Positions 1,765-20,377 of a stretch of 25,247 nucleotides of DNA are shown here, in pieces. Every line of letters starts with the position of its first letter. The first letter of the stretch is position 1. Position numbers and translations under genes: made by a program. Origin of the DNA: a virus (Duplodnaviria > Caudoviricetes). The stretch is taken from positions 1 through 25,247 of the IMG/VR virus record IMGVR_UViG_3300033406_000042, one strand, 5' to 3'. The notes beneath the pieces were generated by a model, which ran no database searches, was not told the DNA's origin, and worked only from the letters and a program-made list of their open reading frames with translations.

Positions 1765-1793
1765 TTGACTTGCTAACTCAATAGGCATAAAAT

Positions 1794-1817
1794 AAAAAAG
1801 GAGTCACGCCTGACTCC
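1794..1817 (-). terminator. Intrinsic terminator
   Basis: Minus strand GGAGTCA-GGCG-TGACTCC followed by a T run. Confidence 0.75.
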
Positions 1818-1856
1818 AACCTTTGTTAACCTTAAATCTAATACTATGAAAAACAC
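1794..1856 (-). ncRNA. Putative ~60-nt sRNA
   Basis: Lies between a consensus minus-strand Bacteroides promoter (1861-1891) and an intrinsic terminator (1794-1817), with no ORF on that strand. Confidence 0.65.
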
Positions 1857-6908: not shown

Positions 6909-7148
6909 ATGAAATACTTAGAAATATTATTAGAAGAGAAGAATATTAGTTCAGAAACAAATCTATTAGAGAACGAAGGCAATTTAGGCTTAACGATTCA
7001 AATGCTAATCGACTTCATCTATTCAATGCCTGCAAACATTAGAAAGCAAGTAGAGAATACATTTAGAAAGATAGACTTTATGAATGGTGATGTTATGAAC
7101 TACATCAATTTTCTAGCTAAAGGTATGGTAAAGAGTTCAGGCTATTAA
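6909..7148 (+). CDS. Hypothetical protein
   Basis: 79-aa ORF with AT-rich leader downstream of a -7 element. Confidence 0.7.
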   Translation: MKYLEILLEEKNISSETNLLENEGNLGLTIQMLIDFIYSMPANIRKQVENTFRKIDFMNGDVMNYINFLAKGMVKSSGY

Positions 7149-7160
7149 TATTGATGATAA

Positions 7161-7236
7161 ATGTACGACAATGGCTTTGTTGTCGTACATAGCAATTTAG
7201 ATAATTTCTCTAACTTAGTGCCTGTTAGTACCTTTG
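7161..7236 (+). promoter_or_regulatory. Putative late promoter 1 with upstream palindrome
   Basis: TACGACAA-N8-TTGTCGTA (7164-7187), AATTTC (7203-7208), TACCTTTG (7229-7236). Same layout recurs at 17048-17120. Confidence 0.7.
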
Positions 7237-7246
7237 AGGTATTATC

Positions 7247-7318
7247 AGCGGGATAGAGTATATGGTAACTTGCTACTTTGACTTGGTAGAGCAGACGATT
7301 CGAACGCGTCTCCCGCAA
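7247..7318 (+). tRNA. Atypical tRNA-like gene: initiator-like body, anticodon GAC (possibly degenerate)
   Basis: Cloverleaf: aGCGGGA TA GAGT atatggta ACTT G CTACT ttGACtt GGTAG agca GACGa ttcgaac gCGTC TCCCGCa A. Has a 1:72 mismatch, an A-G mismatch closing the T-loop, and T at position 37. Confidence 0.6.
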
Positions 7319-7323
7319 CACTT

Positions 7324-7397
7324 GGATAATTAGCTCAATGGTCAAGAGCGGTGCGCTGTTAACGCAAAGGTTATAGGTTCGAGTCCTATATTGTCCG
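7324..7397 (+). tRNA. tRNA-Asn(GTT)
   Basis: Acceptor GGATAAT/ATTGTCC, D-stem GCTC/GAGC, anticodon loop CTGTTAA (GTT 7358-7360), T-arm ATAGG-TTCGAGT-CCTAT, G73; no encoded CCA. Confidence 0.85.
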
Positions 7398-7422
7398 CAG
7401 CATTAATTTAATTTACACGATT

Positions 7423-7785
7423 ATGAATATCCTAACGCTTTCAATAAAACAGAAGTTCTTTGATGAGATCTTAGCTGGTAAGAAGAAGCAAGAGTTTAGA
7501 GAGATACGCCCAAACTCACAGAAAAAGTATTGTGAGCTTGATGAAGAAGGCTATGTTAAAGAGGTTGATGGTGTCTTACAACCCCGAAAATATGACGCTA
7601 TCAAGTTTCTTACTGGTGAGTATAAAGGCACGAGACCTTATGCTATCGTAGAGGTAACAGGGGCAAAGATAGAGTTGTTCGAAGATGAAAATCATGAACT
7701 GATAACCTATCAGTATCAGGGTGAAGAATATGTTGCCGCTCAGGTCGTTTACGACTTGGGTAAGGTAATCGAAAGGAATGTTTAA
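7423..7785 (+). CDS. ASCH domain protein
   Basis: LTLSIKQKFFDEILAGKKKQEFR matches the ASCH GxKxxExR motif. Confidence 0.8.
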   Translation: MNILTLSIKQKFFDEILAGKKKQEFREIRPNSQKKYCELDEEGYVKEVDGVLQPRKYDAIKFLTGEYKGTRPYAIVEVTGAKIELFEDENHELITYQYQGEEYVAAQVVYDLGKVIERNV

Positions 7786-7806
7786 TCTATAAAATTATCT
7801 AGCTGA

Positions 7807-7950
7807 GTCAGAATTAAAGTTGGTACAAGTGCAACAGCCAATAAAGGCGTTGTAGGTCGTAGAAGCTTCACAGGTGGTAGCGGCCAATTTATGAACCGTA
7901 GACAGAAATACGGTGAAGTTCGTAAGGGTTTAGGTTTATCTGGAGGTTAG
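7807..7950 (+). CDS. Unannotated basic Gly-rich peptide (47 aa) with no canonical start at its 5' end
   Basis: After an in-frame TGA (7804-7806): GTC AGA ATT... = VRIKVGTSATANKGVVGRRSFTGGSGQFMNRRQKYGEVRKGLGLSGG*. It fills the gap up to the next gene; the only ATG is at 7891. Confidence 0.6.
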   Translation, partial: VRIKVGTSATANKGVVGRRSFTGGSGQFMNRRQKYGEVRKGLGLSGG

Positions 7951-7955
7951 TGTCT

Positions 7956-8624
7956 ATGCTAATCGAGGATACATATTGCAGCATTGACCGAATTCGTGAA
8001 AAGACGAGTTCGGTTTTGCTGCTTTTGTCTTTTGGCAAGGATAGTCTTGTATTGCTGGATATGATCTATCCTAAATTTGACAGGATAGTATGTGCCTTCA
8101 TGTATTTCGTCCCCGGACTGGATCATATTGAACGCTGGGTGAAGTGGGCTAAGGCTAAATACCCTAAAATAGAGATTGTACAGGTACCACACTGGAACCT
8201 GACCTACATACTAAGAACTGGTATGTACTGCGTACCTAATCCGAAAGTGAAGCTTTTGAAGCTCGCTGATGTGGTTAAGTCCATGAAATTGAAATATGGG
8301 ATTGATTATGTCTTTTTGGGTATGAAGAAAGCCGATTCAATGAACAGGCGTTTGATGCTGAATAAGATGGAGTTCCCATACGAAAAGAATGGGATGTGCT
8401 ATCCTTTGGCTGATTTCACACAAAGGGATATCCTTGCTTACATGAGGCAAAAGGGATTACCCGAACCAGTAAGGTATTCCAAGAATGCTTCGGGTGGGGT
8501 TGGTTTTAATCTTGATTGTTTTCTGTGGTTAGAATCTCATTATCCACAAGATTTAGAGAATATATACAAGGCCTTTCCAATGAGTAGAAGAATATTATTT
8601 GAACACTATAATGGAATTAAATAA
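7956..8624 (+). CDS. PAPS-reductase-family (PP-loop) protein
   Basis: LLLSFGKDSLV PP-loop, FLGMKKADSMNRR and YPLADFT motifs. Start is GTG 7950 or ATG 7956. Confidence 0.8.
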   Translation: MLIEDTYCSIDRIREKTSSVLLLLSFGKDSLVLLDMIYPKFDRIVCAFMYFVPGLDHIERWVKWAKAKYPKIEIVQVPHWNLTYILRTGMYCVPNPKVKLLKLADVVKSMKLKYGIDYVFLGMKKADSMNRRLMLNKMEFPYEKNGMCYPLADFTQRDILAYMRQKGLPEPVRYSKNASGGVGFNLDCFLWLESHYPQDLENIYKAFPMSRRILFEHYNGIK

Positions 8625-9351
8625 ATACGTAAAATCAGAATCGGTAGAGCTTAAACGTTCTGCTATTCATTTCGCCGATTATAATCCCCGTACTCTTTCC
8701 GATGATGAGAAGAAAGCTCTCAAACGTGGTATAAAGAAATTCGGATTAGTTGGCGGATTGGTAGTCAACAAGCATACAGGTATGACAGTGGTCAGTGGGC
8801 ACCAACGTTTAACGGTCATGGATGAGTTGAACAAGTTCCCCGGCAATGACTATATCATTCGGGTAGATGTGATAGACGTTGACGAAAAACAGGAAAAGGA
8901 GCTTTGCATTCTCCTAAATAATCCAAATGCCCAAGGAAAATGGGATGATGAGAAACTCCGTGAGCTCATTCCTGATATCGACTACAAAGATGCAGGATTG
9001 ACAGACGTAGACTTAAATCTAATAGGCTGTGATTATCTTCTCCAGACAGAAGAAGAAAACTCTTTAGCTGATGCTCTTACTGATATGATGGCACCTGTCA
9101 CCGGACAGAAAGAAGCTGAAAAAGAGGCCAAGCAGTTAGAGAAAGCCGAGAAGACAGCTCACATGAAAGAAGTCAAAGAACAGGTTAAGCAGGCAGCCCA
9201 AGAGAAAGCGAACGATATGGATGCTTACCTTATGCTTTCTTTTGATACCTACGAAGCGAAATCTGCTTTTATGGAAAGGTTCGGTTATAACCCAGAAGAT
9301 AAGTTTATAAAGGGAGAAGTGTTTGACGAACAAATAGAAAGGGTAGATTAA
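8611..9351 (+). CDS. ParB/Srx N-terminal domain protein
   Basis: ADYNPRTLS..LKRGIKKFGLV..LVVN...VVSGHQRL; acidic C-terminus. Confidence 0.85.
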   Translation: MELNKYVKSESVELKRSAIHFADYNPRTLSDDEKKALKRGIKKFGLVGGLVVNKHTGMTVVSGHQRLTVMDELNKFPGNDYIIRVDVIDVDEKQEKELCILLNNPNAQGKWDDEKLRELIPDIDYKDAGLTDVDLNLIGCDYLLQTEEENSLADALTDMMAPVTGQKEAEKEAKQLEKAEKTAHMKEVKEQVKQAAQEKANDMDAYLMLSFDTYEAKSAFMERFGYNPEDKFIKGEVFDEQIERVD

Positions 9352-9352
9352 G

Positions 9353-9901
9353 ATGGCAAGACCAAAGTTTGACTACAATAGCAACGAGTTCTACGAAGAG
9401 TTATTCGCTCTCGCTTTTCAAGGATTGACCGATGCGGAGATAGCAGACGGACTGTCCGACAAGTTCGGTCAGACTTTAACGCCCGGAGTATTTTGCAAAA
9501 TGAAAAACGGAAACTATGAGGGATGGAATAAGAAGCAAAATGAAGAGCGTTCAGAGCGTATATCGCAAGTGTTAGCGCACGCCCGTCGTAAAATCAACTC
9601 GATTGTGCGTGGTGCATACTTGAAAGCCGCTTTGGGTGGAAAGAAAATAAAGAGCAAAACAATCACGAAGAGGAAGCTTCGCATTGATGGTGTATATACA
9701 GATGATGAAGATATACAAACATCTGAGACAGAACAAGAACTTCCTTATAATATGCAGGCAATGTCTACTTGGCTTTATCACCATGATGAAGAGTGGAGAA
9801 AGGTAGAGCGCAAACAAGATGAAGATGCGAGCGATATCCCCTCAGAGATCAATCAAGGTGTTAATATTGATTCTTGGATTAAGAAGGAGGTAGGCAAATG
9901 A
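9353..9901 (+). CDS. Terminase small subunit (putative)
   Basis: MARPK start, HTH-like GLTDAEIADGL, coupled directly to the large terminase. Confidence 0.75.
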   Translation: MARPKFDYNSNEFYEELFALAFQGLTDAEIADGLSDKFGQTLTPGVFCKMKNGNYEGWNKKQNEERSERISQVLAHARRKINSIVRGAYLKAALGGKKIKSKTITKRKLRIDGVYTDDEDIQTSETEQELPYNMQAMSTWLYHHDEEWRKVERKQDEDASDIPSEINQGVNIDSWIKKEVGK

Positions 9902-12204
9902 TTTGTCCTCAGACTATTTACCATCCGTTATACACCGATAAAGAGAAGTTCATTATCCTTATTACGGGCGGCCGTGGGTGTGAAACACCTACACAAGAGA
10001 TCATTATGGCTGATTTGACAATAAAGCAAATTAAGGATATTAAAGTCGGAGATTACGTTATGGGAGATAATGGTACTCCTCGTAAAGTACTCGCTACAAT
10101 GTATGGCCAAAGTGAGATGTTTCGTGTTCGGCAAACAAGTGCAAAAGATTACTTCGTAAATGATGCACATATCCTTAGTTTAAAGAAAAGTCAAGCATCT
10201 ATAAATGAAGGAAGATATAATAATTTTGGAGAATACACCGACATGAAAGTGACTGATTTCATGAATCAGAGTAATAGGTTTAAAGAACATTTTAGAGGTT
10301 ATAAAACAAACTCTATTCCCTATAAACATAAATCCGTAAAATTAGATCCTTATTTGCTTGGAATATGGCTTGGAGATGGTACTAGTATATTTCCTCAAAT
10401 TACGACTCCAGACATAGAAATAAAGCAATATATTCAAGATTATGTAAATAGGCATAACTTACTACTTACGGTTAATGGAGTTAGGGGAAAAGCTGAAACA
10501 TTACGGCTTGCTAAGAGAGGTGGCTTAACTAATCCGATTATGGATATTTTGCGTGAGTATGATTTGGTAAATAACAAACACGTTCCACAAGATTATATAT
10601 CAAATAGTGAGCAAGTGAGGCTTGAAGTACTAGCTGGTTTGCTCGATACCGATGGATACATGAGTAAAAACGGATACGAGATAATACAAAAGAATGAGGG
10701 TTTGGCAAAACAAATAAAATTCATTGCTGATACGCTTGGCTTTAGAACGAGCATTAATAGCAAGGATGCATATTGTAATAAAAAATATTGCGGCCTTGTA
10801 TATCGAGTTTTCATAAACGGAGATGTGTGGAAGATTCCATGTAAGGTAGCGAGAAAGCAAGTTCATGAATCACAAGTACATAAAAACAAGGATTGGCATC
10901 TATCTCAGCTTGCAATAGAGCCTGCTGGCATAGGTGAGTGGTGTGGAATTTGTCTCGACGGAAATCAACGTTATTTACATTCAGACGGTACAGTAACGCA
11001 TAATTCCGGGAAGTCTTTCAACGCAGCCACCTTCATAGAGCGATTAACTTTTGAACTCACTCCGGCCGAAAGGATTGTTCATCAGGTACTCTATACTCGT
11101 TATACGATGGTTTCCGCTAACATGTCTATCATTCCCGAAATGATGGAGAAGATACAACTAGACGGTACCGACAAATATTTCTCCACCACCAAGACGGATG
11201 TGGTAAACAAGATGACGAATAGTCATATCATGTTCCGGGGAATAAAAACTTCATCTGGGAACCAGACGGCAAAGCTGAAATCCATTCACGGGATAACAAC
11301 ATTTGTTTGTGATGAAGCGGAAGAATGGACTAGTGAACAGGACTTTGAAAAGATCATGCTCTCTATCCGTCAGAAAGGAATCCAGAACCGGATCATCATT
11401 ATCATGAACCCGACGGATTCCAATCACTTCATCTACAAGCGATACATAGAGAATACCCATAAGCTTGTCAACATTGACGGTGTGGATGTTCAGATCTCCA
11501 CTCATCCAAATGTGCTTCATATCCACACTACCTATCTGGACAATGTAGACAACCTTTCTCCGCAGTTTATTGATGAAGTTCAAAGAATGAAGGTAGAAAA
11601 TCCAGAGAAGTATGGTCATACGGTTATCGGTCGTTGGGCGGATGTGGCTGAGGGAGCTGTATTCAAGAAATGGGGCATAGTTAAGGAGTTCCCGGCATGG
11701 GCAAAGAAAATAGCTCTGGGGCAAGACTTCGGATATAGTAACGACGTTTCTGCGACTGTAAGATGTGGTATTATTGATAACGCTCTTTACGTGGATGAAC
11801 TGTGTTATCAAGCGGGGATGCTTACCAATGATTTAGCCAACACACTAAGGCCGTGGGGATTAAAAGTCTTTTCCGAATCTGCCGATCCTCGTTTAATTCA
11901 GGAGATAAAGAACAGAGGCGTAAACATCTATCCAGTAGATAAGAGTTCCATTGATGGCAAAGGTTCTATTATTGCAGGCATTGAAAAAATCAAAGACATG
12001 GAACTGTTTGTCACAGAACGGTCATATAATCTCATTAAAGAGCTTCGGAATTACGTTTGGGATAAAGATAAGGACGGCAACTATATCAACACCCCCGTTG
12101 ACAAGGATAATCATCTGTGCGATTCAATTAGATACTATGTACTTGGGTGCCTATTAGGACGTATTTTGAAGCCGAAAGATTTAACAGGAGTATTCACGCA
12201 TTAA
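9898..12204 (+). CDS. terL: Terminase large subunit (PBSX-like) containing an intein
   Basis: Split Walker A ITGGRG|SGKS, KLKSI, Walker B FVCDEAEE, MNP, nuclease motifs GQDFGY and DNHLCDSIRY. Confidence 0.95.
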   Translation: MICPQTIYHPLYTDKEKFIILITGGRGCETPTQEIIMADLTIKQIKDIKVGDYVMGDNGTPRKVLATMYGQSEMFRVRQTSAKDYFVNDAHILSLKKSQASINEGRYNNFGEYTDMKVTDFMNQSNRFKEHFRGYKTNSIPYKHKSVKLDPYLLGIWLGDGTSIFPQITTPDIEIKQYIQDYVNRHNLLLTVNGVRGKAETLRLAKRGGLTNPIMDILREYDLVNNKHVPQDYISNSEQVRLEVLAGLLDTDGYMSKNGYEIIQKNEGLAKQIKFIADTLGFRTSINSKDAYCNKKYCGLVYRVFINGDVWKIPCKVARKQVHESQVHKNKDWHLSQLAIEPAGIGEWCGICLDGNQRYLHSDGTVTHNSGKSFNAATFIERLTFELTPAERIVHQVLYTRYTMVSANMSIIPEMMEKIQLDGTDKYFSTTKTDVVNKMTNSHIMFRGIKTSSGNQTAKLKSIHGITTFVCDEAEEWTSEQDFEKIMLSIRQKGIQNRIIIIMNPTDSNHFIYKRYIENTHKLVNIDGVDVQISTHPNVLHIHTTYLDNVDNLSPQFIDEVQRMKVENPEKYGHTVIGRWADVAEGAVFKKWGIVKEFPAWAKKIALGQDFGYSNDVSATVRCGIIDNALYVDELCYQAGMLTNDLANTLRPWGLKVFSESADPRLIQEIKNRGVNIYPVDKSSIDGKGSIIAGIEKIKDMELFVTERSYNLIKELRNYVWDKDKDGNYINTPVDKDNHLCDSIRYYVLGCLLGRILKPKDLTGVFTH
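9979..11004 (+). mobile_element. 342-aa intein with LAGLIDADG homing endonuclease
   Basis: Starts at Cys (CETPTQEIIMAD), block B VNDAHIL, LLGIWLGDG and VLAGLLDTDG motifs, ends VTHN followed by Ser. Confidence 0.95.
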
Positions 12205-13820: not shown

Positions 13821-13853
13821 AGTTGCACAATTGTGTAACTCACATTATCTTTG
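13821..13853 (+). promoter_or_regulatory. TA1 promoter with operator palindrome
   Basis: AGTTGCACAA/TTGTGTAACT palindrome (one mismatch), then TATCTTTG 4 nt before the ATG. Confidence 0.7.
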
Positions 13854-13857
13854 TGAT

Positions 13858-14199
13858 ATGAAACGCAGAATTATAGCATTCGGGCAATATTACCATGACT
13901 TTATTGCTTCCCTTAATGAAAAAGAGGTGATGAAAGTTAAGTATGTGTTATCTTTGTTGGAAACATACGACCGAGTACCAATAAAGTTTATAAAGTTCAT
14001 ACGTGATGGGTTATATGAGCTGAGAATCGAATATAATGGCAATATATATCGTATATTTTTCATCTTTGATGATGGGCAGGTAGTTGTGTTATTTAATGGT
14101 TTTCAAAAGAAAACGCAAAAAACACCTACTTCGGAAATAGATAAAGCTTTAAAAATAAAGGAGGAGTATTATGACTACAAAGAACAACATGCTGACTGA
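13858..14199 (+). CDS. RelE/HigB (phage gp49-like) toxin
   Basis: GLYELRIEYNGNIYRIFFIFDDGQVVVLFNGFQKKTQKTP. Confidence 0.9.
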   Translation: MKRRIIAFGQYYHDFIASLNEKEVMKVKYVLSLLETYDRVPIKFIKFIRDGLYELRIEYNGNIYRIFFIFDDGQVVVLFNGFQKKTQKTPTSEIDKALKIKEEYYDYKEQHAD

Positions 14200-14473
14200 T
14201 ATTAGTGCTGAATTAGAAAAGGAATTCGGTAAACATGGTACACCTGAACGTGCAAAGTTTGATGAAGAAGCCTATGCCTTCTACACCAGTCAAATTTTGC
14301 TTGATGCAAGGAAGAATGCAAGATTGACTCAAGAGGAACTGGCAAAGCGTATCGGGGCTAATAAATCATATATTTCCCGTATTGAAAAAGGCACCACCGT
14401 TCCCAGTGTTGCGACCTTCTATCGGATCGTTAATGCTTTGGGGCTAACGGTTGATTTAAATCCGACTATGTAA
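14171..14473 (+). CDS. XRE-family HTH antitoxin (HigA-like)
   Basis: ARLTQEELAKRIGANKSYISRIEKG. Confidence 0.9.
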   Translation: MTTKNNMLTDISAELEKEFGKHGTPERAKFDEEAYAFYTSQILLDARKNARLTQEELAKRIGANKSYISRIEKGTTVPSVATFYRIVNALGLTVDLNPTM

Positions 14474-14517
14474 TAGCTGAACAATTTATGTCAGATACAG
14501 TAATTAGGAACATTTAG

Positions 14518-14550
14518 GCGGTGATTCATTGGAGTTGCCGCTATTTTTTT
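14518..14550 (+). terminator. Intrinsic terminator, copy 2 of a repeated hairpin
   Basis: GCGGTGATTC-ATTG-GAGTTGCCGC followed by TA and a T run. Confidence 0.8.
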
Positions 14551-14575
14551 GTTTTCAACTGAAAATATTTACTCA

Positions 14576-14610
14576 AAAGTTGCTCAACTGATAAACTTTA
14601 TATATCTTTG
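14576..14610 (+). promoter_or_regulatory. TA2 promoter with operator palindrome
   Basis: AAAGTTGCTCAACTGATAAACTTT, then TATCTTTG (14603-14610) 4 nt before the ATG; same spacing as TA1. Confidence 0.65.
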
Positions 14611-14614
14611 CTAT

Positions 14615-14956
14615 ATGAAAAGAGAGATAATAGCATACGAAAACTACTATAAAGATTTTTTTGATACCTTAGACAAGGGTACCCAAGAAAAAGTTTTGTA
14701 TGGATTGCTTTTATTGAAGACTCAAGATAGGCTACCAGCTAAGTACGTGAAGTTTCTCAAGGATGGTTTATACGAGTTAAGAATAGAGTGGAAAGGTAAT
14801 ATCTATCGAGTTTTCTTTTGTTATGATGAAGGACGTATTGTTATATTGTTCAATGGCTTTCAGAAGAAAACACAGAAAACTCCAGATAGAGAAATAGATA
14901 AGGCATTAAAACTAAAGAAAGAATATTATGAGCGAAAAAGGACTAAAAATGTTTAA
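14615..14956 (+). CDS. RelE/HigB (phage gp49-like) toxin, paralog 2
   Basis: GLYELRIEWKGNIYRVFFCYDEGRIVILFNGFQKKTQKTP; ATG 14615. Confidence 0.9.
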   Translation: MKREIIAYENYYKDFFDTLDKGTQEKVLYGLLLLKTQDRLPAKYVKFLKDGLYELRIEWKGNIYRVFFCYDEGRIVILFNGFQKKTQKTPDREIDKALKLKKEYYERKRTKNV

Positions 14957-15230
14957 TGTCGATGCGCAATTAGATGCTGCTTTCGGCAAAGAAGGAACTC
15001 CAGAGCGTAAAGCTGCTGAAGATAGAGCTAATGCTTTCTTTACTGGACAAATTATTGAAGAAGCTAGGAAGAAAGCAAATATGACACAATCAGAGCTTGC
15101 AGAGAAGATAGGTACAAATAAGTCTTATATTTCCCGTGTAGAAACGGGAAAGACAGAACCCAAAGTTTCTACTTTCTATCGCATTGCTTCTGCTTTAGGA
15201 ATGACAGTTGATCTAACTCCGACTGTATAA
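14928..15230 (+). CDS. XRE-family HTH antitoxin, paralog 2
   Basis: ANMTQSELAEKIGTNKSYISRVETG. Confidence 0.9.
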   Translation: MSEKGLKMFNVDAQLDAAFGKEGTPERKAAEDRANAFFTGQIIEEARKKANMTQSELAEKIGTNKSYISRVETGKTEPKVSTFYRIASALGMTVDLTPTV

Positions 15231-15232
15231 TA

Positions 15233-15818
15233 ATGAAGATAGTTGAAGTAATTGTAGAACATGCGTGTAAGAACTTGAGTGCTTATATTGAGGGTGCTCC
15301 GGTAATTACTGTAGGTAATGACATGTGTGAGGTTGAGGAGAATATGAAAGAGGCTATTGAGCTATATCTGGAAGATAATCCTAATCCTTGTGAATTGTTA
15401 TCAGGTGAATTTGAACTGAAATTTAAGATTGATGCTGCTACTTTTATCAACTATATGGCTAAGATAGAGAATGAGATAGAATATGATGCCATTTGTCAAA
15501 GGGTAGAGGAACTTCTTCCTATGACAGATGATAATACTCCATTGACTGATCCGAGATTGATTGAATTGAGAATTTTATCTGAGTTGGTTCTTGAGTATGA
15601 AGAGGAACATTATCCGATAGAGAAGCCAACTGTGTCTGAACTGATAGAACTTCGCTTGAAGAAAAAGGCATGATGCAGAAACAACTTGTAGGCGAATGTT
15701 ATATGATTTTTTCTGTGTTAATGACTATATCTCTGGACAGTTGGAGCCAACATTAAAAATTGCAAGATTGCTTTGTTGATTTTTGAATATTCCTGTGGCA
15801 TTTATGTTGGGATTTTAG
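15233..15818 (+). pseudogene. Chimeric remnant: HicB-like N-terminus fused to a decayed HigA-like gene
   Basis: 15233-15454 is HicB-like (SAYIEGAPVITVG...MKEAIELYLE). From ATG 15455 it is HigA-like (MAKIENEIEY...YEEEHYPIEKPT). HTH remnants (QKQL, EPTLKIARLLC*FLNIP) continue out of frame past the stop at 15673. Confidence 0.65.
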
Positions 15819-19786: not shown

Positions 19787-20106
19787 TTTTCACCCCTCAT
19801 ATATTACAGATTAAGGTAACTACTGAGCCGCAAAGGGATGAGCTCGGAAGACCTGTCCCCGGTACTGGTAGTGAAGATTGGCAAACTGTATGTGAATGTC
19901 GTTGTGATGATAACACAACCAAAGAGTTTACTTCCACAAATGGACAAGTCTATAGACCTAACTACCATGTGGTATGTGAGAAGAAAGTCTATCTTAAAGC
20001 AGATGATGAAGTCAGATGTATGGATGGGGATATGGTGAGAGGAAAAGGGACGGTTTACGCTGTCAAGTCAACTAACTACTTTAACTACTCAGAGCTATGG
20101 ATGTAG
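19783..20106 (+). CDS. Head closure protein (putative)
   Basis: RDELGRPV N-terminal motif, beta-rich; synteny. Confidence 0.65.
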   Translation: MIFTPHILQIKVTTEPQRDELGRPVPGTGSEDWQTVCECRCDDNTTKEFTSTNGQVYRPNYHVVCEKKVYLKADDEVRCMDGDMVRGKGTVYAVKSTNYFNYSELWM

Positions 20107-20377
20107 GTTTCGACTTTTCCGATATAGATTCCTTCTTTCAGGAGGAAGAAGCCAGAGTACTTGCCAAAGAGCATGAGATAGGAGAGGAAGCCATTCAATA
20201 CGCTAAAGAGCAGGGTAATTATAAAGACCATACAGGGCATTTGACGAGGTAGACAAAGAGGGCTTAACCCTGAAAAACGAAGCAGAATACGCTTCATTCG
20301 TAGAATCCAAGAAGTTTGATGTTTTAAGTAGTACAGCCTTACATGCTGAAAAACGGCTAAAAGAAGAATTTGAATAA
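20097..20377 (+). pseudogene. Frameshifted neck/tail-completion (HK97 gp10-like) gene
   Basis: MDVGFDFSDIDSFF...GNYKDHTGHLTR* stops at 20250-20252; EVDKEGLTLKNEAEYASFVESK...KEEFE* continues in another frame to 20377. Confidence 0.7.

Follow-up and report, generated by a model that had tools for sequence, protein, structure and literature searches.

A tRNA of a gut-type Bacteroidales phage acts, to judge from sequence comparison, very probably as a dedicated formyl-valine initiator for a neighbouring gene of 47 codons. The DNA analysed, in the following called the window, is the whole 25,247-nt stretch (positions 1 to 25,247) of the IMG/VR record IMGVR_UViG_3300033406_000042 (Caudoviricetes), and its named relatives are affiliated with Bacteroidota. 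The accepted view is that bacterial proteins begin with formyl-methionine, delivered by one kind of initiator tRNA that also reads other start codons. If true, a second initiator occurring in nature, with an amino acid and a start code of its own, would break this single-initiator rule, uncover a class of genes overlooked or cut short by annotation, and provide evolved orthogonal initiator/start pairs for synthetic biology. Database entries begin the proteins concerned at internal or upstream methionines.

The features of the locus are compiled in Table 1. Its neighbours, namely the ASCH-like, PP-loop, ParB-like and terminase genes, indicate that the module heads the phage packaging operon; a database search found the module absent from GenBank phages. 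ASCH proteins are of an RNA-binding type. The ASCH-like gene sits between tRNA and peptide and also occurs in relatives without the tRNA, while the PP-loop gene begins 5 nt past the peptide stop, a gap that is short in most clusters of relatives as well. The tRNA-Asn(GTT) is an accessory outside the conserved module, since it was present in one of 60 related loci scanned. Upstream of the initiator-like tRNA, the earlier note on this DNA had placed a late promoter. A promoter-like TAnnTTTG, which we take to be the Bacteroidia -7 element, does stand there and was found in 28 of 36 tRNA-bearing clusters, whereas the word late derives solely from gene order. From one RNA run, a 298-nt contig of low depth was assembled that spans 7019-7316; it cannot show processing or even transcription. 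A perfect 10-bp inverted repeat (7162-7189), possibly a terminator, follows the preceding gene and lies ahead of the promoter-like element.

Table 1. Features of the tRNA-peptide module and adjoining genes in the window
Feature	Position	Strand	Basis or remark
TAnnTTTG promoter-like element	7229..7236	+	sequence; ends 10 nt before tRNA
Initiator-derived tRNA, anticodon GAC (7280-7282), U37/U38, open 1:72, A73	7247..7318	+	
tRNA-Asn(GTT), ordinary-looking	7324..7397	+	Rfam RF00005, 67.7 bits
ASCH-like protein, 120 aa, ATG start	7423..7785	+	PF04266, E 0.004, under curated cut-off
Start signal GCTGA|GTC (the bar precedes the first codon)	7802..7809	+	-1 A opposite U37, -2 G opposite U38, GTC opposite anticodon
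Gly/Arg-rich peptide, 47 aa, C-terminal glycine, predicted formyl-valine start	7807..7950	+	
PP-loop (PAPS-reductase-like) enzyme	7956..8624	+	PF01507, E 2.5e-6; phrog_424
ParB-like protein, ATG start in window	8611..9351	+	phrog_9353, phrog_620
Terminase small and large subunits	9353..12204	+	Pfam and PHROG matches

The tRNA forms a 72-nt cloverleaf with an A1/A72 mismatch, G2-C71, C3-G70, G4-C69, A11-U24 and A73. A11-U24 in the D stem is an initiator trait. Thus, all features of the initiator-like cloverleaf with GAC anticodon reported in the earlier note are present. In the anticodon stem, 29-31/39-41 are A-U, C-G and U.G, so that the three G-C pairs of initiators are missing, and A53/G61 is mismatched. 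CCA is encoded neither here nor in two host initiator genes inspected. Taken alone, the window copy is weak: its folding z is -0.14, Rfam yields no match at E<=1, and ARAGORN calls it tRNA-Val(GAC). Five other loci compared against Rfam gave generic RF00005 only, over four of the elements, and no match to a described non-tRNA family at the curated threshold. However, the window tRNA is more than a chance fold, because relatives share both tRNA and start. With the ASCH-like protein as query, 80 viral loci were collected; the tRNA pattern is present in 79, the 80th (L042) holds a compensated variant, and GTC or GTT directly follows TGA in all 80.

An alignment of 44 rows, comprising 42 family tRNAs and two host initiators (L283, L284), has 94.8% of its cells paired and double-sided changes at 17 of 21 pairs, while none of 500 shuffled alignments scored as high on four of five fold measures. 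Positions 1:72 are unpaired in 44/44 rows, C3-G70 occurs in 44, G2-C71 in 43, G4-C69 in 42 and A11-U24 in 44/44. Since some rows stem from patterns that fix the tRNA ends, unbiased evidence for the open pair comes from the 80 loci collected by protein. G30-C40 occurs in 12/44 rows, among them both host rows, whereas 30:40 is C-G in 32/44, and 31:39 is U.G in 39/44. The earlier caveat that the window copy may be degenerate is only partly borne out: U37 and the lost G-C pairs are family traits and not decay, while the A53/G61 mispair is peculiar to the window (1/44 rows). The window's own copy is divergent.

Family anticodons are GAC, AAC or TAC rather than the CAU of a methionine initiator. The major ValRS elements A35, C36 and A73 are kept in window and family, with C at 73 in L292. 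Like the host tRNA-fMet (L283, L284), the phage tRNA has the open 1:72, G2-C71, C3-G70, G4-C69, A73 and A11-U24, together with near-identical D and variable regions, and the cloverleaf family derives from tRNA-fMet. However, the host initiator has CAU, A37/A38 and three G-C pairs where the phage tRNA has NAC, U37/U38 and no G-C run. Furthermore, the host tRNA serves the whole cell and the phage tRNA would serve a few phage genes. Of the traits of elongator tRNA-Val, the paired 1:72, G3-C70, U4-A69 and a purine at 37 are all lacking. Consequently, the phage tRNA falls outside tRNA-fMet by its anticodon and G-C stem, and outside elongator tRNA-Val by its open 1:72.

The most telling evidence comes from covariation between anticodon and first codon. 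Anticodon variants were gathered by pattern scans without any start codon, and protein scans added loci with or without a tRNA. This gave 436 loci with a PP-loop gene; 404 of them with at least 1250 nt upstream were retained (32 dropped), and redundant loci were merged into 78 clusters. Among the 33 clusters with a tRNA in cis and a GTN start, GAC/GTC occurs in 23, AAC/GTT in 7, TAC/GTA in 2 and GAC/GTT in one. Anticodon and start thus match by Watson-Crick pairing in 32 of 33, the remaining one being a G:U wobble, and none of 200,000 permutations matched as well. The initial start rule used flanking bases; rerunning the analysis on the first GTN in frame, whatever its flanks, returned the same table. 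On a tree built from PP-loop proteins, anticodon and start codon each change 8 times. Independent pairs, taken on starred branches, gave 7 changes in the same direction, 0 in the opposite direction and 1 tie (p=0.016). One starred clade joins the window's nearest relative L001 (GAC/GTC), the wobble intermediate L002 (GAC/GTT) and L246 (AAC/GTT), whose peptide is identical in sequence to that of the window. The expectation of a GAC anticodon and open 1:72 co-occurring with valine first codons was thus confirmed in the form that position 34 alone varies and the start follows. Because the changes are limited to 34, valine identity is always retained.

The pairing extends beyond the codon. Base 37 is complementary to base -1 in 33/33 clusters, with U37 facing A in 32 and C37 facing G in one (L292), which argues against U37 being decay. 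Position -2 is G opposite U38 in 33/33, and this invariance renders -2/38 uninformative. GA precedes 32/33 valine starts as against 10/242 internal valine codons of window genes. In the ATG-start counterparts TT stands before the start in 21/35 and T at -1 in 30/35, a T-rich context that fits A37/A38 of the host initiator. According to bioRxiv 2022.05.02.490318, a 37/-1 pair was established in E. coli by compensatory mutants. The phage tRNA shares with that A37:U(-1) quadruplet pairing a match between base 37 and base -1; however, the preference described there is mild, while evolution has fixed the phage pair, and in the opposite orientation (U37:A, C37:G). An extended duplex of 9 nt between mRNA and entire anticodon loop was rejected, as -4/40 has 7 C-C mismatches and +4/+5 vary. 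GCY at -5 to -3 (7802-7804 in the window) is conserved in the family without tracking the tRNA stem, and similar bases occur in actinobacterial look-alikes. The leaders of the 33 clusters carry A at -13 in 28 and at -14 in 30; initiation in Bacteroidia is described as proceeding mostly without Shine-Dalgarno pairing, via A-rich leaders (PMC13000453).

The peptide frame itself begins 489 nt downstream of the tRNA. As the earlier note had seen, it opens with GTC AGA right after an in-frame TGA and reaches its first ATG only at 7891 (Met29). Between the window and L246, the peptide gene differs by 12 synonymous and 0 non-synonymous codons, 9 and 0 of them in codons 1-28, and in five other relatives synonymous changes likewise outnumber non-synonymous ones. 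The frame is thus under purifying selection upstream of Met29 and coding from codon 1, contrary to the possibility raised before that conservation sets in at the methionine. Among database homologues, 11 of 13 start with Met, two codons ahead of the window's valine, and the four Met-start homologue loci that were fetched have an identical gene order and no tRNA. The C-terminal glycine is invariant in 33 aligned homologues, which were chosen partly by their C-termini. No match to the peptide was found in Pfam, PHROG or NCBIfam, and none above lead level in the ESM Atlas; the PP-loop profile gave one match among solved structures, to the N-terminal motif alone. The window holds only this one valine-start gene of its kind.

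Presence of the tRNA goes along with the type of start. Among 72 clusters, 33 combine tRNA and GTN, 35 have no tRNA and ATG, 3 have tRNA and ATG, and 1 has GTN without tRNA; this count leaves out 6 clusters without an assignable frame and includes 5 labels set by hand (L288, L332, L393, L440, L441). Since some distant ATG frames are unproven homologues and a few probably mis-picks, the tree test is the fairer figure, with about 7 concordant and 0 discordant pairs (p about 0.016). In most tRNA-less relatives, the peptide ATG lies at about the same place. Peptide homologues at a conserved ATG had been named as a finding that would speak against the valine initiator; such homologues do exist, but almost all of them lack the tRNA.

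Some clusters are exceptions. In L300 and L311, the tRNA accompanies an ATG peptide, yet short GA|GTT frames follow the ASCH-like gene; moreover, the ParB-like gene of L300 (AAC-type) starts at TGA|GTT and an Arg-rich gene of L311 at GTC. L288, the GTN case without a tRNA in cis, belongs to a genome of which another contig holds one. In L441 and L331, the tRNA is decayed or interrupted and the peptide starts with ATG. An insertion of ~500 nt splits the tRNA of L331 (L331:1004-1624), of which a 5' half remains along with a second copy that is degenerate. L393 has the tRNA and an ATG peptide, and a cognate start was not found in its 3.3 kb. L307 and L361 possess GA|GTY Arg-rich frames with no tRNA nearby, L307 having none in its 57%-complete record.

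Based on work in E. coli, we expect host ValRS to charge the phage tRNA via A35, C36 and A73, host Fmt, which was over the cut-off in 5/5 carrier genomes, to formylate it via the open 1:72, G2-C71, C3-G70 and G4-C69, and IF2 to place it in the P site at GA|GUC. There, four pairs (-1 to +3), perhaps with a fifth G.U at -2, would offset the missing G-C stem signature. GA before the start finds no pairing partner in A37/A38 of the host initiator, so that only the phage tRNA would use the site. The targets of this tRNA would be one to three small basic proteins and, in one lineage, ParB; the closely following PP-loop gene is possibly a target too, through coupling. The terminal glycine of the peptide and the abutting PP-loop gene suggest that the tRNA may gate a peptide-enzyme module. 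As a guess at its purpose, the module could be gated apart from the host initiator pool, e.g., when that tRNA is cut or limiting. Some nucleases are reported to cut the host initiator tRNA (PMC10264068). Phage tRNAs that evade anticodon nucleases (PMC10264068) share an altered anticodon loop with the tRNA studied here, and nuclease escape is a possible motive. However, those tRNAs replace host tRNAs for standard codons, and the accessible part of that source describes no new start codon.

In its action the phage tRNA is likely comparable to engineered valine initiators, so far known from engineered cells only. The E. coli G34C36 initiator is reported to be valylated and formylated, to start and restart at GUC, and to bind IF2 about as well as formyl-methionine (PMC2268962), while an AAC initiator starts GUU with formyl-valine in E. 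coli (bioRxiv 2021.05.25.445580). Both G34C36 (PMC2268962) and i-tRNA(AAC) (bioRxiv 2021.05.25.445580) combine an initiator body with a valine anticodon, and their GUC or GUU start with formyl-valine is what we propose for the phage tRNA. In contrast, they are described as laboratory mutants in which the G-C stem and A37 are retained, whereas the phage tRNA occurs in nature, has acquired a -1 partner of its own and has undergone repeated codon switches. Identity elements given in PMC9976931 comprise A35, C36 and A73 as major and G3-C70 and U4-A69 as minor elements of ValRS, besides the formylation set; the absence of both minor elements from the phage tRNA counts against the initiator reading.

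The missing G-C stem is the main objection to the initiator reading. The native E. coli initiator is reported to require G30 (PMC5389676), and initiation is lost in an E. coli stem mutant with UA/CG/AU (PMC6393288). However, a C-G middle pair still gets into 70S (PMC5389676), valylation is reported to be impaired by a rigid G-C stem (bioRxiv 2021.05.25.445580), and the -1 pair would add stability, all of which softens the objection. The phage system would also put the 37/-1 pairing to the test in nature and show to what extent the three-G-C rule applies outside E. coli.

The same objection nourishes the strongest, albeit unlikely, rival explanation: the tRNA would pair with the same site without ordinary initiation, as an uncharged or unformylated P-site mimic acting as blocker or guide, and the host initiator would make little peptide. 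The G-C signature on which the 30S-to-70S step depends in E. coli is indeed missing, ASCH-like and PP-loop proteins adjoin the tRNA, and GCY at -5 to -3 is conserved without tracking it. Against a mimic, the anticodon changes at 34 only, so that valine identity is always kept, and the formylation elements are kept as well. In addition, CAU and A37/A38 of the host initiator fit GA|GUC poorly. Finally, loss or decay of the tRNA accompanies an ATG start (L441, L331, L307), which is the behaviour of an activator rather than a blocker.

Less probable still, the tRNA could be an unusual elongator tRNA-Val that makes up for a host without a GAC isoacceptor, the GTC start being a coincidence. Four Bacteroidota carrier genomes did show UAC valine tRNAs only with the pattern used, and ARAGORN labels the tRNA as tRNA-Val. 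However, 1:72 is open in 44/44 rows, A11-U24 is invariant while the host valine tRNAs found with the pattern used have C11, and GTC is the rarest valine codon of window genes (26/242). Codon supply also predicts no matched changes at the first codon and at -1. We give hardly any credence to the peptide being a tail of the ASCH-like protein, fused to it by readthrough, frameshift or hopping from the terminal valine codon onto GTC. The two do share a reading frame in the window, where the ASCH-like gene ends GTT TAA 21 nt earlier; across GTN-start clusters, however, the gap of 5-35 nt falls in all three frames (with one outlier, likely a mis-pick), a valine-final ASCH-like protein occurs in only 15/36 tRNA-bearing clusters, and secondary valine-start frames stand behind other genes. 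This fusion was consequently rejected. Just as implausible is a near-cognate start, in which the host initiator reads GUY (or ATT at codon 3), keeping the peptide low, and the tRNA is a bystander: E. coli's native initiator reads GUU weakly according to bioRxiv 2021.05.25.445580, but this leaves unexplained why the codon tracks the phage anticodon through 8 changes, and codon 3 is not conserved.

Besides the peptide gene, further genes seem to use the valine initiator proposed here. Downstream of the PP-loop gene, Arg-rich frames stand behind a GGAG motif and GA in 123/228 GAC loci, compared with 2/145 tRNA-less loci. The 35 distinct N-termini of such secondary frames in GAC loci comprise 17 GTT, 16 GTC, 2 GTG (terminase) and 0 GTA, whereas TAC loci have GTA in 2/2; a TAC phage holds three GA|GTA genes. 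For one secondary family, an ATG homologue begins at the same place, and two database entries were called 8 codons upstream. GGAG(G) in front of secondary valine-start genes was observed downstream of the PP-loop gene in L004, L009, L016, L027, L081, L158, L210 and L300, which is noteworthy because Bacteroidia mostly ignore Shine-Dalgarno sites. In L210, a pistol ribozyme just above the Rfam threshold (L210:1295-1361) lies about 440 nt upstream of the TAC tRNA. The idea of a general switch for late genes was not supported: ten phage records were scanned, seven of them whole and the other three either partial or covered in part, and their valine starts are confined to this module. A genome-wide set of valine-start late genes was thus not found, as only scattered, chance-like intergenic matches occur beyond the module in these ten records.

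A genome scan returned look-alikes that have a ribosome-binding site and the cognate codon within about 80 nt; they are few and were judged by eye. The Dokdonella-type loci L225, L228, L239 and L240 have AAC, C37, a ribosome-binding site and G|GTT, followed by an IPTL-CTERM-like peptide of 36-37 aa. L229 combines TAC and G37 with GGAGG and then C|GTA, and L244 and L247 combine TAC and U37 with GGAGG and then GA|GTA; their peptides comprise 7-19 codons. These C|GTA and GA|GTA look-alikes belong to a Saccharimonadales and an actinobacterial genome. In an unrelated phage group (L218:765-1760 (-), L219-L221), an initiator-like tRNA with GTT anticodon and C37 lies directly before a long gene that seems to begin at G|AAC, homologues of which begin with Met at about the same place. 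In L222 (Verrucomicrobia), after 2574, a tRNA with TAC and A37 was observed, and a 66-codon frame begins TT|GTA right after the previous stop. Matches with CAC anticodon (L209, L213, L215, L224, L234, L235, L241) lacked a start that was clearly cognate; several of them resemble single-base variants of an ordinary initiator. L209, L213/L214 and L215 are initiator-like CAC phage tRNAs with altered stem or loop amid head or tail genes. A scan for other DAD anticodons gave 4 matches, for which a cognate start was likewise not evident. Of the 26 genome-scan matches, about 9 were dismissed as chance matches in coding DNA.

Taken together, we consider it probable that natural orthogonal initiation is widespread, with tRNA-fMet repeatedly made into a private initiator in several phyla, in mobile elements and bacteria alike. 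Hidden genes would then begin with formyl-valine or another non-methionine residue at the four-base start codes GA|GTC, GA|GTT, GA|GTA, G|GTT, C|GTA and G|AAC. The literature searched, mostly from journals without subscription, yielded no natural case of a valine initiator tRNA, and PMC11744186, in its accessible part, deals with engineered tRNAs only.

The window shows some further features. The large terminase gene (9898-12204) carries a Hint plus LAGLIDADG insert and is intein-like. According to the ORF list, two tandem gene pairs, which we take to be toxin-antitoxin-like, and another HTH-type gene are inserted after the portal gene (13831-15673). A probable head-tail gene (20097-20377) has a stop after 51 codons and seems interrupted, and a FopS sRNA match was found in Rfam at 1788-1856 (-) with 75 bits.
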